This document shows positions 1-4,941 of a stretch of DNA of 4,941 nucleotides, one piece after another. Both the position numbers and the translations under genes were made by a program. The stretch lies in IMG/VR virus record IMGVR_UViG_2734482780_000003, one strand, 5' to 3'. Source of the stretch: a virus (taxonomy: Duplodnaviria; Heunggongvirae; Uroviricota; Caudoviricetes). The notes under the pieces are model-generated. The model saw only the letters and a list, made by a program, of their open reading frames with translations. It searched no databases and was not told where the DNA came from. How positions within the stretch are numbered: the stretch's first letter is position 1; the number at the start of each line of letters is the position of its first letter.

Positions 1-260
1 AATTTCCCTTTGCATACCAGGGCAAAACCTTTCCAGCCGATATACACCGTCAGGACAGCGCCACGAACCGGCAGCCCGACCTGCCCGTCGGCATCGTTCA
101 GTTCAATATCAAGCTGGTCAGCCTCAAAGCCCCGGTTATCCGTCAGGGTCATGCTCATCAGACGGTCGCTGATATTGCCGGTAATATCCCTGCTGTCGAG
201 CATCAGCATGTAATCCGGCGTCAGCGTACTGCCTGCATCAAATGTCAGCGCATCCAGCAT
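1..260 (-). CDS. D: Phage tail protein D (P2 gpD-like), N-terminal part only; the gene continues beyond the window start
   Basis: ATG at 260..258 opens a minus-strand frame with no stop down to position 1, translating MLDALTFDAGSTLTPDYMLMLDSRDITGNISDRLMSMTLTDNRGFEADQLDIELNDADGQVGLPVRGAVLTVYIGWKGF..., which I recognise as the gpD N-terminus. The start overlaps the U stop (TAATG). Position after U matches P2 order T-U-D. Absent from the ORF track because it has no in-window stop. Confidence 0.8.
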   Translation of the reverse strand, partial: MLDALTFDAGSTLTPDYMLMLDSRDITGNISDRLMSMTLTDNRGFEADQLDIELNDADGQVGLPVRGAVLTVYIGWKGFALVCKGK

Positions 261-739
261 TATCCCGCCCCCGTCATACCCGTGAATTTAGTCGCCATAC
301 TGCCAGCCTTACCGATGAGCGATTCCGCCTGTTTACCGATATCGCCATAAAGCGCGACCAGTGATTCATCAACGCGGGTGAGCGACAACGTAAAATCAAT
401 TTTCCGGGGTGTGCCGTCTGCAAAGAAAATACTCCCTGTTTCACTCACCCTGCTGATGACATACATGCCGTAAATCATGCCGGTGCCATCCAGCAACGGC
501 CACGCCCGGCCTTCCTCTGCCATCAGCCTGAGCGTGGTCATCGTCAGCTTCCCGCCGGTCAGTTCGGGATAAAGCACGCCGGCAAGCGTCATGTTTTCCT
601 CACCCACACCGAGAAACTGAAAGGCATCCCGTTTACCGATACGGGAATTTGACGGCCAGCGATAATCTGATTCGCGCTGCATGGTCTGGTGTGGCAGCGT
701 CTGGCGCATAAAAACAAACATACCTAACGCGAGCATCAT
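260..739 (-). CDS. U: Phage tail protein U (P2 gpU-like), 159 aa
   Basis: Complete ORF from ATG 739..737 to TAA 262..260. A GGAGGTGA Shine-Dalgarno (reverse complement of 744..751) sits about 6 nt upstream of the ATG. Product MMLALGMFVFMRQTLPHQ...TGMTGAG matches my recollection of gpU. Lies immediately downstream of the T stop, as in P2. Confidence 0.88.
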   Translation of the reverse strand: MMLALGMFVFMRQTLPHQTMQRESDYRWPSNSRIGKRDAFQFLGVGEENMTLAGVLYPELTGGKLTMTTLRLMAEEGRAWPLLDGTGMIYGMYVISRVSETGSIFFADGTPRKIDFTLSLTRVDESLVALYGDIGKQAESLIGKAGSMATKFTGMTGAG

Positions 740-753
740 TTTTCGTCACCTCC

Positions 754-2083
754 TTAACCGTCATGCATCATGCTGGCACGGGCGCGCGCACGTTTATCCC
801 GCTCGTATTTTTCGAGCGCATCCTGTAACTGGCGGTCAAGCTGTGTCCCCGGCGCAGTACCACCCGTCAGGCTGATGTGATATTCGTTTTTACTCTGGTC
901 CACATAAGAGCGGCCAGCCGGTGCCGTGACCGGCTGATAAGCCTGATAGCCTGCATAAGAGCTGGTCGCCGGAATATAACCACCGGTGCCATACGTGGCG
1001 GCATTAGTCCTTGCGGCGGTCTGGTCAAGTGTGTCTGACTCTTTGTTGATGACACCGAGTTTTTCCAGTACCCAGTCAATACCACTGCGCAGTTTGTTGA
1101 ACGCATTAAGCGGCAGCATCAACGCGTCAGCCAGTGCCTGCCCGAACATGACACCCGTGTCACGGCAACGGTTCAGGGTGTCCTGGGTGGCTTTGACCGG
1201 GGCAATCAGGTTTTTAAACCACTGCCACGCGGCCTGTAACTTTTCGCCCAGCCAGTCAAACACCGGCTTAAGTGGCGTGAACAGTTCCCCCACCGGCGCA
1301 AATGCCGCTTTCAGCCCTTCCACCACACCGCCAAAGAATGCGCTGACAGGCTCCCAGTATTTACGAATAAGCAACGCCCCGGCGACAATGGCGGCCACCA
1401 CGGCAACAACCGGCCAGCTAATCGCCCCGATGGCCGTCATAACAGCACTGCCAACCGTCGTGAAGATTGCCCCCATTGCGCCTGCTGCCGCGATGATGGC
1501 ATTGATGCCGGTGATAACCGGCCAGGCTACGAGGCCAATGGCACCGATGACGCCAGTCAGCGCCAGTGCGCCACCGACAATTAGGCCAATGGTTGACGCC
1601 AGTGATTTGTTTTTCTGGATCCAGCCGTCGAGTTTTAACACATACTTTGTGGCCGTCTGTGTGAGCTTACGCAGTGCGCCTTCCTGCTGGTCAAACAGGT
1701 CAGTCCCCACCGCTTCATAAGCGGACTGAAACTCCTTAAAGTCACCGCCGAGGTTATCCTGCATGATTTTAACCAGCTCTTCCGTTTTACCGTCCGAGGC
1801 TTTCAGCGTGGCGGTCAGCTTATCCAGTTTTCCGCTTGCTGCCGCTGCCAGTAAAACGTTCGCTGATTTCAGGGCTTCCTCACCAAAAATGGTTTTAAGG
1901 TATTCCCCCTTCTGAGACGTTCCCAGCTTGTGTTTATCAAAGCTGGCCTGAATCTCTTTCAGAATGGTGAACAACGGGCGCATATTTCCCTTTTTGTCCG
2001 AGGTTTTAACGCCAAGCTCTTTGAGTGCATCCCATGCTTTCCCTGTCGGAGCCTGTAATCGGGTGACAACGGCACTGCTACCC
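754..2083 (-). pseudogene. T: Tail tape measure protein T (P2 gpT-like), 5'-truncated: C-terminal portion only, frame intact to the native stop
   Basis: Minus-strand frame is open from 2094 to the TAA at 756..754; the first ATG is at 1983..1981, giving the 409-aa track ORF. The product has tape-measure character (central Gly/Ala-rich hydrophobic segment, ending ...EKYERDKRARARASMMHDG) and is followed by U and D. There is no N-terminal half: upstream the sequence switches abruptly to the 5' end of J. Confidence 0.75.
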
Positions 2084-2188
2084 GTAAAGGGAAATCAGTG
2101 TCGCCTTGCGTTCAGCGAGAATGCTTTCAAAGTCCAGCTCCTCGACCACATCCGGTGCGGGTAGCTGGTTCAGGTCGATAATTGGCAT
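2078..2188 (-). pseudogene. J: Baseplate assembly protein J (P2 gpJ-like) remnant: first 35 codons, then one non-native Gly codon and a TAG stop
   Basis: ATG 2188..2186, four nt after the W stop, translates MPIIDLNQLPAPDVVEELDFESILAERKATLISLYG*. I recall this as the gpJ N-terminus, which in P2 continues ...SLYP.... Here homology ends after the Tyr codon (2086..2084) and a TAG follows at 2080..2078. Confidence 0.75.
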
Positions 2189-2192
2189 GGTT

Positions 2193-2540
2193 TCAACTCA
2201 CAGGGATGGTTAATGAAAGTGGCTGGCCGGTGTCGTTGTGCTGGCCGGTTAACGTGGCCGTCATTCGCCCGTCAAAACTGCGCTCAGTGGTGACGGATGA
2301 CAGGGTGACGCGGGGTTCCCATTTCAGCACCGCCATGTAACAGGCGACCTTAATCTGCAACTCAAGCGCCGGGGTCTGCGGCTGGTCAATCATTGATGCC
2401 AGCAACGAGCCGTAATCACGACGCATCACCCGTGAGCCGACCGGTGTGCGCAGGATATCGCCGATACTCTGGCTGATATGCTCAAGGTCAGTGACAGTCA
2501 GGCCATCACTGCGATTCATTCCGAGATAACGCGCTGTCAT
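2193..2540 (-). CDS. W: Baseplate wedge protein W (P2 gpW-like), 115 aa
   Basis: Complete ORF from ATG 2540..2538 to TGA 2195..2193. The start overlaps the V stop (ATGA). Product MTARYLGMNRSDGLTVTDLEHISQSIGDILRTPVGSRVMRRDYGSLLASMIDQ... matches my recollection of gpW. Synteny V-W-J. Confidence 0.9.
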   Translation of the reverse strand: MTARYLGMNRSDGLTVTDLEHISQSIGDILRTPVGSRVMRRDYGSLLASMIDQPQTPALELQIKVACYMAVLKWEPRVTLSSVTTERSFDGRMTATLTGQHNDTGQPLSLTIPVS

Positions 2541-3172
2541 AAAGGACTCCCGGTTGTGCCGCCGCTGTCGCCGGGGTGTTTATGGGTATGCAGTACCTTA
2601 CCGTTTGATGAGAGTTCACCGCCGGTGTGTTCAATGTTGCCGCGCATCGTCCCGCCCTTCTGCACTTCCAGCGTGCCGGTAATCAGCCTGTTGGTGCAGA
2701 CCACCTCCGGGGTGTCCAGGGTGACGCGGGTTGATGCTTTCACCATGAACACCGGCACCGTGGCAGTAACAGAATCAGAAGCCGTCACGCTGGCCGTTTT
2801 AATTCCGCTTACCGTGAGTGCACTGGTTTCGGGTTCATATTCAATCACCGCCCCGTCAGGGAAACGGATATGCAGGGCATCCGCCGACACAGACGGCGAG
2901 GGGTTATCGCCGGAATAAATCCCCGGCAGAACGAACGCCGTGTCGAGTTCACCACCCACGGCCAGAATCAGCACCTGTTCCCCCACGGAAGGTGCCCACC
3001 ATGTGCGCGAACGCCCGGCACGATGGGTCAGCCACTGAAGCCAGTCGGTGCACATGCCGCCGGTCTGCACGCGGCAGCGACCGGCGTTAAGGTCGGTTTC
3101 GACGATAATGCCGGTGCGAATCATGTTGCGCAGTGCGCGCGCGAGTTCCTGAATATTTGCGAGAGTGTTCAT
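2537..3172 (-). CDS. V: Baseplate spike / central hub protein V (P2 gpV-like), 211 aa
   Basis: ATG at 3172..3170 (MNTLANIQELARALRNMIRTGIIVETDLNAGRCRVQTGG...) to TGA 2539..2537. The track ORF starts 6 codons earlier at a TTG (3190..3188), which I reject in favour of the ATG. Product matches my recollection of gpV. Confidence 0.88.
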   Translation of the reverse strand: MNTLANIQELARALRNMIRTGIIVETDLNAGRCRVQTGGMCTDWLQWLTHRAGRSRTWWAPSVGEQVLILAVGGELDTAFVLPGIYSGDNPSPSVSADALHIRFPDGAVIEYEPETSALTVSGIKTASVTASDSVTATVPVFMVKASTRVTLDTPEVVCTNRLITGTLEVQKGGTMRGNIEHTGGELSSNGKVLHTHKHPGDSGGTTGSPL

Positions 3173-3182
3173 GCATGTGAGA

Positions 3183-3240
3183 TTGCACAATATATAAAAG
3201 TTATGCTATCTGGATTCATTTGTAGAACTACCAGACAACA
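3183..3240 (-). promoter_or_regulatory. Candidate Ogr/Delta-activated late promoter for V (P_V-like): TGT...ACA partial dyad plus an AT-rich -10-like element
   Basis: On the minus strand upstream of the V ATG: TGTTGTCTGGTAGTTCTACA (3240..3221) contains TGT-N11-ACA (or TGT-N14-ACA), followed about 30-40 nt downstream by TTTTATATATT (3199..3189). P2 late promoters carry a TGT-N12-ACA activator site near -55 and P2 has a late promoter in front of V. The spacing here is not an exact match to the consensus as I recall it. Confidence 0.4.
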
Positions 3241-3255
3241 TTCAAGGAGAGCGTA

Positions 3256-4041
3256 ATGGTCAGCTATAATGTGACTAATGTGTGGGGGCTAATCGTTTTT
3301 TTCCTTTGTAGCTTTGCAGTATTAGCATTTTTTAGCTTTGGTAAAAGTAACCTTATGAGGCTTATTGCACATTATTTCAATTTTGGATATTCAGACAAAA
3401 AATTAAAAAGACTTGACCGCGAGTGGCGCGACATTCAACTATTTAAAATAATTAACGGAATCAATGTATCAGGCATTGAAAATGTGAGAATGATACAGCA
3501 GGGACTGATTGATGGAAAACTAAAAACATCGTATTTTTTCCTTACTCGCATCTGGGGTGACATAACAAAACCACCACACATAATTAAAACAATAATTGTA
3601 ATTCTGGCCAGTATTATTTATATTCTCTTCGCATGTTATATACACAACAAACAATCCGCTATAGTAAGAGATGCCATAGGCATACCATATAAAAATATGA
3701 TGTACTATGTTTATAGTGACAAAGTTCTTTTATCCTTCAAAAATAAAGCAGTTGAATTTAATAAAACTTATAGCCTTGCCGATTGCAAGAGACTGCAAAA
3801 CGTATTTATAAAAGACACACTTCCTGAAATCGCCTGCAATAAGCTCTTACAGCTAAACGAGGAGGACTCCGAATGGTTAAGCCAGGAGATTAAAGATAAT
3901 AACAGTCACAAAAAAGCATTATTAATACTATCCCTCGTCTATTTCACTTCAGGTCTGGTTATATTCCTGTCATATACAAAATTCTTTTACGCCAATAAGA
4001 AGGTTTTAGAATACAAAGCATCAAATAAAAATCACTCATAA
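3256..4041 (+). CDS. Hypothetical AT-rich membrane protein (261 aa, three predicted transmembrane helices); cargo gene at the S/V junction, the position occupied by orf30 in P2
   Basis: ORF from ATG 3256 to TAA 4039..4041. AAGGAG Shine-Dalgarno at 3244..3249 with 6-nt spacing. Followed 6 nt downstream by a 13-bp perfect hairpin. Composition is markedly AT-rich (roughly one-third GC by eye, against more than half in the flanking phage genes) with many ATA/AAA/AAT codons. Hydrophobic segments at residues ~9-29 (VWGLIVFFLCSFAVLAFFSFG), ~108-130 (HIIKTIIVILASIIYILFACYIH) and ~221-241 (ALLILSLVYFTSGLVIFLSYT). Orientation is opposite to the surrounding phage operons. No recognisable homology from memory. 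Confidence 0.7.
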   Translation: MVSYNVTNVWGLIVFFLCSFAVLAFFSFGKSNLMRLIAHYFNFGYSDKKLKRLDREWRDIQLFKIINGINVSGIENVRMIQQGLIDGKLKTSYFFLTRIWGDITKPPHIIKTIIVILASIIYILFACYIHNKQSAIVRDAIGIPYKNMMYYVYSDKVLLSFKNKAVEFNKTYSLADCKRLQNVFIKDTLPEIACNKLLQLNEEDSEWLSQEIKDNNSHKKALLILSLVYFTSGLVIFLSYTKFFYANKKVLEYKASNKNHS

Positions 4042-4046
4042 ACCTC

Positions 4047-4083
4047 TAAACATTGAGCGACCAGCATGGCCGCTCAATGTTTA
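4047..4083. terminator. Bidirectional intrinsic terminator hairpin between the convergent cargo gene (+) and S (-)
   Basis: Perfect inverted repeat TAAACATTGAGCG (4047..4059) / CGCTCAATGTTTA (4071..4083) around an 11-nt loop (4060..4070), with possible extra CCA/TGG pairing inside the loop. It lies 6 nt after the cargo stop and about 30 nt after the S stop. T/A-rich runs follow on both strands (TTAATT on plus; AGAGGTTTATGAGTGATTTTTATTTG on minus). Confidence 0.7.
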
Positions 4084-4112
4084 ATTGCGCATCAGCCTCT
4101 GCCTGGATAAAA

Positions 4113-4565
4113 CTAACGCTCAAGGTGAGCCAGGATAATCTCCTCAATCATCTGCACATCCTCACCGGTAAAGCCGAGCAGAGGACGCGCCGGATAATCA
4201 ATTTTCTTACCGTCTTTCCGGGTTTCTTCCGACAGACCGAACTGATGCACACTGGCGATTTTCGGCGACTTCCCGCCGTAAAATTCCATTGATGCCTGCT
4301 CCGGGCTGGCGCGGATATGCAAAAAACGACTGGTGATAAGTTTCGCAAACATTTTTCGCTTAACACGACCAGTCTTTTTTCTGGCGCTCTGCTGCTGGCG
4401 TGGCGCGTAGGGTGTGCCGTCCGGGGCTTTCTGAGCCATCACCCGACGCTGCTGACTCTGCCGCAGACGTTTCGCCAGTTCGGCGCTCAGTCGCCGACGC
4501 CCTGACGGTGACAGCGATTCAATCAGTCCGGTCAGCCGGTCTTCAAAACGCTTAAACTCATTCAT
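4113..4565 (-). CDS. S: Tail completion protein S (P2 gpS-like), 150 aa
   Basis: Complete ORF from ATG 4565..4563 to TAG 4115..4113. The start lies 8 nt inside the R stop region (R TGA at 4560..4558). Product MNEFKRFEDRLTGLIESLSPSGRRRLSAELAKRLRQSQQRRVMAQKAPDGTPYAPRQQQSARKK... matches my recollection of gpS. Confidence 0.88.
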   Translation of the reverse strand: MNEFKRFEDRLTGLIESLSPSGRRRLSAELAKRLRQSQQRRVMAQKAPDGTPYAPRQQQSARKKTGRVKRKMFAKLITSRFLHIRASPEQASMEFYGGKSPKIASVHQFGLSEETRKDGKKIDYPARPLLGFTGEDVQMIEEIILAHLER

Positions 4566-4941
4566 CCCACTTGCTCACCAGTTCGCCATTGATATAAAGC
4601 TCCACCGGGCGGGTGACCGGCTCCGGCGGCGTGGGTTCCGGGATATTCTTCACATGCAGTGCGCCGTCCACCTCACTGACCAGCGTGCGCTCGGTCAGCA
4701 TCAGGCTGATGCTGATATCAAAGCTGCTGTCATTGTTGATGTCTGCATAAAACGTGAAGCCCTTTTTCTGGCCTTCGTCAGTGGTCATGATGTCGGGCTG
4801 ATTTTCCCGCAGCCACGCCAGCACCGGCACGATGAGCAGGTCAAAATCACCGGTAAAGTCGGTCACAATCACATTGAGCGTGTAACGCTTTTCGAATGAC
4901 AGCGACGTCGCCAGTGTGGAGGCAATACTCCCGTTACACGC
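4558..4941 (-). CDS. R: Tail completion protein R (P2 gpR-like), C-terminal part; the 5' end lies beyond the window end
   Basis: Minus-strand frame is open from the window end to TGA 4560..4558, translating ACNGSIASTLATSLSFEKRYTLNVIVTDFTGDFDLLIVPVLAWLRENQPDIMTTDEGQKKGFTFYADINNDS...SKWDE. The track start at 4872 is an internal GTG; the true start is upstream of the window. Matches my recollection of gpR and the R-S order. Confidence 0.82.
   Translation of the reverse strand, partial: ACNGSIASTLATSLSFEKRYTLNVIVTDFTGDFDLLIVPVLAWLRENQPDIMTTDEGQKKGFTFYADINNDSSFDISISLMLTERTLVSEVDGALHVKNIPEPTPPEPVTRPVELYINGELVSKWDE

Follow-up and report, generated by a model that had tools for sequence, protein, structure and literature searches.

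The 83-bp non-coding interval that separates gene V from the divergent gene orf30 is almost certainly the late promoter P_V of bacteriophage P2, lying head to head with the translation signals of orf30. The window (the whole stretch of 4,941 nt that was analysed) contains P2-type phage DNA in reverse-strand reading, and the interval (3173..3255) runs between the V start codon on the minus strand and the orf30 ATG at 3256 on the plus strand. Direct alignment showed that 3173..3255 is 100% identical to P2 (AF063097). An alignment of 231 bases contained a single mismatch, located inside V, and in a search of phage records a 201-base segment around the interval matched P2 and close relatives at 99.5-100% identity. 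The P2 record annotates both an activator-binding site for P_V and the transcription start of the V operon, the latter at a base that is also the first of the V coding sequence, and it labels orf30 'nonessential', with the same CDS start as in the window (Table 1). The neighbouring genes (S, orf30, V, W), the activator site, the start and the orf30 ribosome-binding site are the same as at P_V in P2, the sequence match runs into both flanking genes and there is no difference within the interval. P_V is already characterised, an ordinary element of a model phage that is annotated base by base in GenBank. The initial annotation had proposed an Ogr-type late promoter for V beside the Shine-Dalgarno sequence of a cargo gene; this was correct, as judged by identity with P2 and its annotation, and was already known. 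All of the sequence features that it described are present where it placed them, and the gene layout confirmed that no other interval in the window separates divergent genes.

Table 1. Positions of genes, promoter elements and annotated features (window coordinates unless P2 or AF063097 is named; numbers in brackets are relative to the V start codon).
Feature	Position	Strand	Basis or remark
U	260..739	-	P2-type window
T, C-terminal part	754..1983	-	P2-type window
J remnant	2082..2187	-	P2-type window
W	2193..2540	-	P2-type window
V, baseplate spike, first gene of the P_V operon	2537..3172	-	
orf30, sole plus-strand gene, AT-rich	3256..4041	+	about 33% G+C
S (R also on the minus strand)	4113..4565	-	
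V start codon ATG; its A (3172) is the annotated P_V transcription start	3170..3172	-	
P_V -10, CAATCT	3185..3180 (-13..-8)	-	implied by annotated start
AT-rich run TTTTATATATT	3199..3189 (-17..-27)	-	P_V spacer
P_V -35 position, TAGCAT	3203..3208 (-36..-31)	-	poor consensus match
Block AAAGnTATGsTAT, including TATGCT (3202..3207)	3197..3209	+	alignment of loci L092 and L088
Ogr / P4 Delta activator-binding site of P_V	3214..3241	-	AF063097 annotation and identity
orf30 Shine-Dalgarno AAGGAG, 6 nt before ATG 3256	3244..3249	+	sequence
'activator binding site; activation of pV promoter'	AF063097 10239..10266 = 3241..3214		GenBank feature
'transcription start site for V operon; encodes V, W, J, I, H, G'	AF063097 10308 = 3172		GenBank feature
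Activator-site matrix match, P_O/P_P	P2 3060..3083		
Activator-site matrix match, P_F	P2 17558..17581		
Activator-site matrix match, P_V	P2 10240..10263		

For the P_V start and activator site, the positions used here derive from the GenBank annotation and from a secondary citation. The four Ogr-dependent late promoters of P2 (P_P, P_O, P_V and P_F) have TGT-N12-ACA as their consensus, and VWJIHG is transcribed from P_V (PMC3931495). On the minus strand the activator-binding site contains TGT at 3240..3238 and at 3237..3235, and ACA at 3223..3221. The partial TGT...ACA dyad originally described at 3221..3240 does lie inside the annotated site, but its ACA is one base out of register (N11); the in-register core consists of TTGT (3238..3235) and TGT-N12-CAA (3237..3220), centred at 3228.5, which is -56.5 from the annotated start. 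Such a short dyad is no better than chance and the bare patterns do not set the site apart: strict TGT-N12-ACA had 0 matches in the window vs 1.28 expected, TGT-N11-ACA had 2 vs 1.31, and TTGT-N14-AA had 3 vs 2.95. A search for inverted repeats in 3140..3290 found none, and an Rfam search of the window returned no match.

To place the site in its family, we used 160 loci encoding gpV relatives, taken from viral contigs and from one genome per species, of which 158 were usable. The 90-nt regions upstream of V from 155 loci were reduced to 65 non-redundant clusters at 80% identity, and motif positions were measured directly from the ATG, as an iterative shift alignment left a 1-nt register split. 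The xTGT motif starts at -66 or -65 in 63/65 clusters. Aligned on TTGT, the family site reads tGTTGTgTcA-N6-A.A.AAC, in which TTGT hardly varies and conservation is strong at A19 and A20, and P_V of P2 agrees with it at TTGT, A19 and A20. At positions 17-19 A is present in 40, 32 and 57 of 63 relatives, and the P2 bases C, A and A in 21, 32 and 57. A weight matrix for the site was built from 62 sequences outside the P2-type cluster and run over the 33.6-kb P2 genome, where the three annotated activator sites were the top three distinct matches, P_V being the lowest of them (10.0 vs 21.7 and 15.9). The top match in the window was 3240..3217, and a 62-nt model extending from the site through the -10 scored 8.5 at P_V vs -6.1 for the runner-up position in the window. 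Thus the activator site is real, because the sequence is identical to P2, the distance to the V ATG is fixed in nearly all relatives and the site is the top matrix match. The runner-up of the site matrix in the window (4425..4448 on the minus strand, inside S, score 9.1) has GTCG instead of the invariant TTGT and falls within a coding region; it is most likely a chance match.

Alignment with the other P2 late promoters, which had been suggested as a check, gave a matching centre position; the right half-site is CAA in P_V, vs CCA in P_O/P_P and P_F and ACA in the consensus, from which P_O/P_P and P_F thus also depart. P_O and P_P have one shared site, TTGTG-...-CCA (TGT-N12-CCA), whose centre is at -55.5 from both starts, and the P_F site is TGT-N12-CCA with its centre at -56.5 to -58.5. 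The annotated starts imply weak -10 elements throughout: GAAACT at P_O, GAAAAT at P_F, TAGCCT at P_P and CAATCT at P_V. A site centred between about -55 and -58, TTGT as a conserved left half-site and a core with a weak -10 and poor -35 are shared by P_V, P_O/P_P and P_F, all of which lie upstream of late structural operons. In the window V, W and the truncated J follow P_V on the minus strand. P_V alone starts at the start codon, unlike the promoters of O and FI, for which leaders of 40 nt and about 25 nt are annotated. According to the literature, the promoters of P4 and 186 that are activated by Delta and B are of the same late-promoter type as those of P2.

The core promoter has a recognisable -10, with A at position 2 and T at position 6, and no consensus -35, and a poor -35 is expected of an activator-dependent promoter. 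Most relatives have TTGCCG at the -35, where P2 has A for the second T. The CAnnnT motif has its first base at -13 in 33 clusters and at -12 in another 29 (of 65), the distance from xTGT to CAnnnT is 53 nt in 57/60, and a TTG is found 23 nt before the -10 (a 17-bp spacer) in 52/59. The AT-rich run at 3189..3199 had initially been taken for a -10-like element of the V promoter; it sits in the spacer, and the annotated start implies CAATCT. Were TATATT (3194..3189) the -10 after all, transcription would begin near 3182 and V would have a leader of about 10 nt. TATATT is closer to TATAAT than CAATCT is, and the S1 mapping of 1985 could in principle err by a few bases. However, a start near 3182 would put the activator site at about -46.5, compared with -55.5 to -57.5 at the other three P2 late promoters, and it disagrees with both the annotated start and the citation of P2 as a leaderless case. 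Moreover, the -17..-27 stretch is unconserved, most relatives having a G+C-rich hairpin there rather than an AT-rich box, whereas CAnnnT is kept at -13/-12 in 62/65, and a 10-nt leader lacking a Shine-Dalgarno sequence would give poor translation. A start near 3182 is thus very improbable, and CAATCT is retained as the -10 of P_V.

Annotation and a secondary citation place the start of transcription from P_V at the A of the V ATG, which makes the V mRNA leaderless, with no Shine-Dalgarno sequence; the initial annotation had not recognised this. A passage in PMC4633059 names P2 among the few leaderless cases in E. coli, citing Christie & Calendar 1985, and the paper cited there for P2 compared the four late promoters. 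Among the relatives a Shine-Dalgarno-like tetramer precedes V in 4/65 (it is absent in P2), and the aligned V start is ATG in 155/158 loci. A promoter locked to the start codon, the lack of a Shine-Dalgarno sequence and a near-universal ATG would together predict a leaderless mRNA, and this prediction from sequence agrees with the annotated start. Similarly, the transcripts of lambda cI (from P_RM) and of Tn1721 tetR begin at the A of AUG with no Shine-Dalgarno sequence. Unlike these repressor genes, V is an essential late structural gene at the head of a polycistronic operon.

Given the sequence identity, the mechanism published for P2 should apply to the window. During the late phase of infection Ogr, a zinc-finger activator, or Delta of the satellite P4 would bind the site at 3214..3241 and, from about 56 bp upstream of the start, would recruit sigma-70 RNA polymerase through its alpha subunit to a core promoter with the weak -10 CAATCT and no usable -35. 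Transcription would then begin at the A of the V ATG and lead to leaderless translation of V, with the transcript running on into W and J. P2 ogr mutations suppress rpoA109 (L290H), a mutation in the alpha C-terminal domain (PMC11434276). The identity with P2, the positions of the elements and their conservation in the family come from the present analysis, and the mapped start, activator binding and Ogr dependence come from annotation and the literature. We infer that the copy of P_V in the window depends on Ogr from its 100% identity to P2; ogr itself is absent from the window, and the prophage has a large deletion of tail genes.

This deletion removed approximately 9.6 kb relative to P2. 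Window positions 2084..4936 correspond to P2 11396..8544 at 98.4% identity and positions 1..2085 to P2 23050..20966 at 93.5%, such that P2 11397..20965 is missing and the junction lies at 2084..2085. The junction joins J, at codon ~35, to the middle of T; most of J is lost, and I, H, G, fun(Z), FI, FII and E are gone as well. The J-T junction was not found in complete E. coli RefSeq genomes, where the best match covered 81% in 3 pieces. The sequence bearing the deletion is either a defective prophage or an assembly chimera.

The activator site ends 2 nt short of the orf30 Shine-Dalgarno sequence. No convincing sigma-70 pair had been assigned to the cargo gene by eye, and the scans agree: a consensus promoter scan of 3173..3255 found no promoter-like site for orf30, and the best plus-strand matrix score in 3050..3255 was 6.6 (TTGCGA at 3157..3162, a 16-bp spacer and GAGATT at 3179..3184), below the shuffled median of 7.1. 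Other plus-strand candidates scored 5.8 (TATGCT at 3202..3207) and 2.8 (TTCATG at 3168..3173, a 17-bp spacer and TATATA at 3191..3196); by the same matrix the known P2 promoters Pe and P_ogr scored 13.6 and 10.2. Only 27 bp separate the orf30 ATG from the activator-site centre, and any orf30 promoter must therefore overlap the P_V core or lie inside V. As a consequence, both promoters would be expected to compete for polymerase during late activation, and interference between orf30 and P_V, as the initial annotation had raised, is plausible from the geometry.

As an addition to the identification of the interval as P_V, it is possible, though somewhat short of an even chance, that a plus-strand sigma-70 promoter for orf30 lies inside the P_V core, with TATGCT (start near 3214), TTCATG-17-TATATA and TTGCGA-16-GAGATT as the candidates. 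Several observations favour this reading. The other P2 accessory genes old, tin and fun are annotated as lysogenic-conversion genes. The block AAAGnTATGsTAT is kept between P2 and the cassettes of L092 and L088, whose Orf30 homologues are 35-39% identical, and TATGCT in P2 and TATGGT in L092 occupy the same position relative to V (-30..-35). A further cassette (L112) has a perfect TTCATG-17-TATAAT where P2 has TATATA, and in L069 the intergenic region is better conserved than orf30 (95% vs 82% identity). Finally, -10-like hexamers occur on the cargo strand at -6/-7 relative to V in 12/26 divergent cassettes, compared with 3/12 co-directional cassettes and 1/13 cargo-free loci. On the other hand, no candidate beats chance in the scans, the position of the -10-like hexamer is inconsistent across cassettes, and the conserved blocks are equally explained by P_V function. 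AAAGnTATGsTAT may be a -10 of orf30 or part of the P_V -35 region, and the AT-rich run (TATATA/TATAAA at 3191..3198 on the plus strand) may contribute to a putative orf30 promoter. If orf30 does have a promoter in the P_V core, it would be on in the lysogen and off once Ogr and polymerase occupy P_V.

A shared position of a cargo-strand -10 was sought across the divergent cassettes. The hexamer enrichment is found only at -6/-7, where P2 has GAGATT (3179..3184), which matches at 3 of 6 positions and is below the criterion, and for these reasons no common orf30-type promoter is claimed. In the 12 of 26 divergent cassettes (e.g. L095, L101, L115, L162) the reverse strand of the P_V -10 region (-6/-7 to -12) is itself a good -10 (TAGAAT, TAGATT, AAGAAT), and a conserved TTGCGA lies inside V, 16 bp upstream of the cargo-strand hexamer. 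The P_V -10 region in such cassettes may be a symmetric, bidirectional -10. That Ogr also activates orf30, with the same site acting both ways, is very improbable: an activator site can act in either orientation, since P_P and P_O share one, but a start placed 55 bp rightward of the site centre (3228.5) comes out at about 3284. This position is within orf30, 28 nt beyond the ATG, and the geometry thus excludes shared-site activation of full-length Orf30.

The orf30 product is 98% identical to P2 Orf30 and is predicted to be a 261-aa membrane protein with three hydrophobic segments. It had no match in Pfam or PADLOC, belongs to PHROG 2407 (function unknown), and in a wider homology search gave five clusters only, the two named ones being hypothetical proteins. 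The slot between S and V is also occupied by Orf30 variants with identities as low as 81% and by distant homologues (23-39%), which suggests a conserved accessory function tied to that slot. The distant homologues (2139..2837 in L092, and those of L088, L143 and L112) are in prophages of other Enterobacterales. The orf30 cassette, a nonessential gene, deviates in composition from its flanks (approximately 33-35% vs approximately 57% G+C) and sits in a variable slot flanked by the conserved genes S and V; PMC3091744 counts orf30 among three P2 loci whose genes are thought to have been acquired horizontally. Downstream, a hairpin (AAACATTGAGCG...CGCTCAATGTTT) at 4047..4083 lies between convergent S on the minus strand and orf30 on the plus strand; it is annotated in P2 as a putative rho-independent terminator of the O operon, and it probably also terminates orf30.

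The S-V slot is a real cargo hotspot: 74 loci have an empty slot of 59-76 bp, and the remainder contain 38 different cassettes of 0.8-2.7 kb with 32-47% G+C, in which the gene nearest V is divergent in 26 and co-directional in 12. Neither the S-V slot nor orf30 is mentioned by name in two papers on P2 defence hotspots (PMC9122126 and bioRxiv 10.64898/2026.02.27.708500). Among the phages lacking cargo, Wphi (AY135739) has TTGT at -66, CAnnCT at -13..-8 and no Shine-Dalgarno sequence, as in P2. Unlike P2, its S-V gap is 66 bp, with the activator site abutting the S stop codon, and it has a TTGCCG -35 and a G+C hairpin in the spacer where P2 has AT-rich sequence linked to orf30. The 66-bp gap, with TTGCCG at -36..-31, is found in Wphi, fiAA91-ss, pro483 and 54 survey loci, and the median folding energy of the spacer hairpin in loci without cargo is -16.3 kcal/mol. 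This hairpin spans from the -35 hexamer to the first base of the P_V -10 (approximately 1586..1607 in Wphi, locus L003), and its stem sequences vary among relatives with the pairing kept. It looks like an end-of-S terminator embedded in the next promoter.

When P2 is compared with the cargo-free phages, nucleotide homology ends exactly at the V ATG, and therefore the orf30 cassette carries its own AT-rich P_V, which shares only the positional essentials. Variation in the intergenic region of orf30-type cassettes is confined to -72, -62, -57 and -3, all of which are outside TTGT, the A-rich right half-site, the -10 and the AT-rich run. A single Shine-Dalgarno variant was seen among these cassettes, in which A at window position 3244 is G, giving GAGGAG and keeping the Shine-Dalgarno sequence. 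These comparisons allow a tentative joint reading, which we consider rather unlikely to hold in all its parts: that the orf30 cassette replaced the whole of an ancestral P_V (TTGCCG -35, G+C hairpin, CATCCT -10) by unrelated AT-rich sequence and kept only TTGT, the A-rich half-site, CAnnCT and the distance to the ATG, with an orf30 promoter inside the P_V core.

Taken together, the survey shows that the leaderless geometry of P_V has been kept across the P2-like prophages of Enterobacterales, whatever has been inserted upstream. It helps the annotation of such prophages by placing the V start and P_V and by flagging cargo genes, and it bears on how essential promoters survive cassette exchange. 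If the joint reading were true, cargo expression in the lysogen and late transcription driven by Ogr would exclude each other, and the S-V slot would be a third cargo hotspot of P2-like phages, in which each cassette must rebuild or preserve an essential leaderless promoter.
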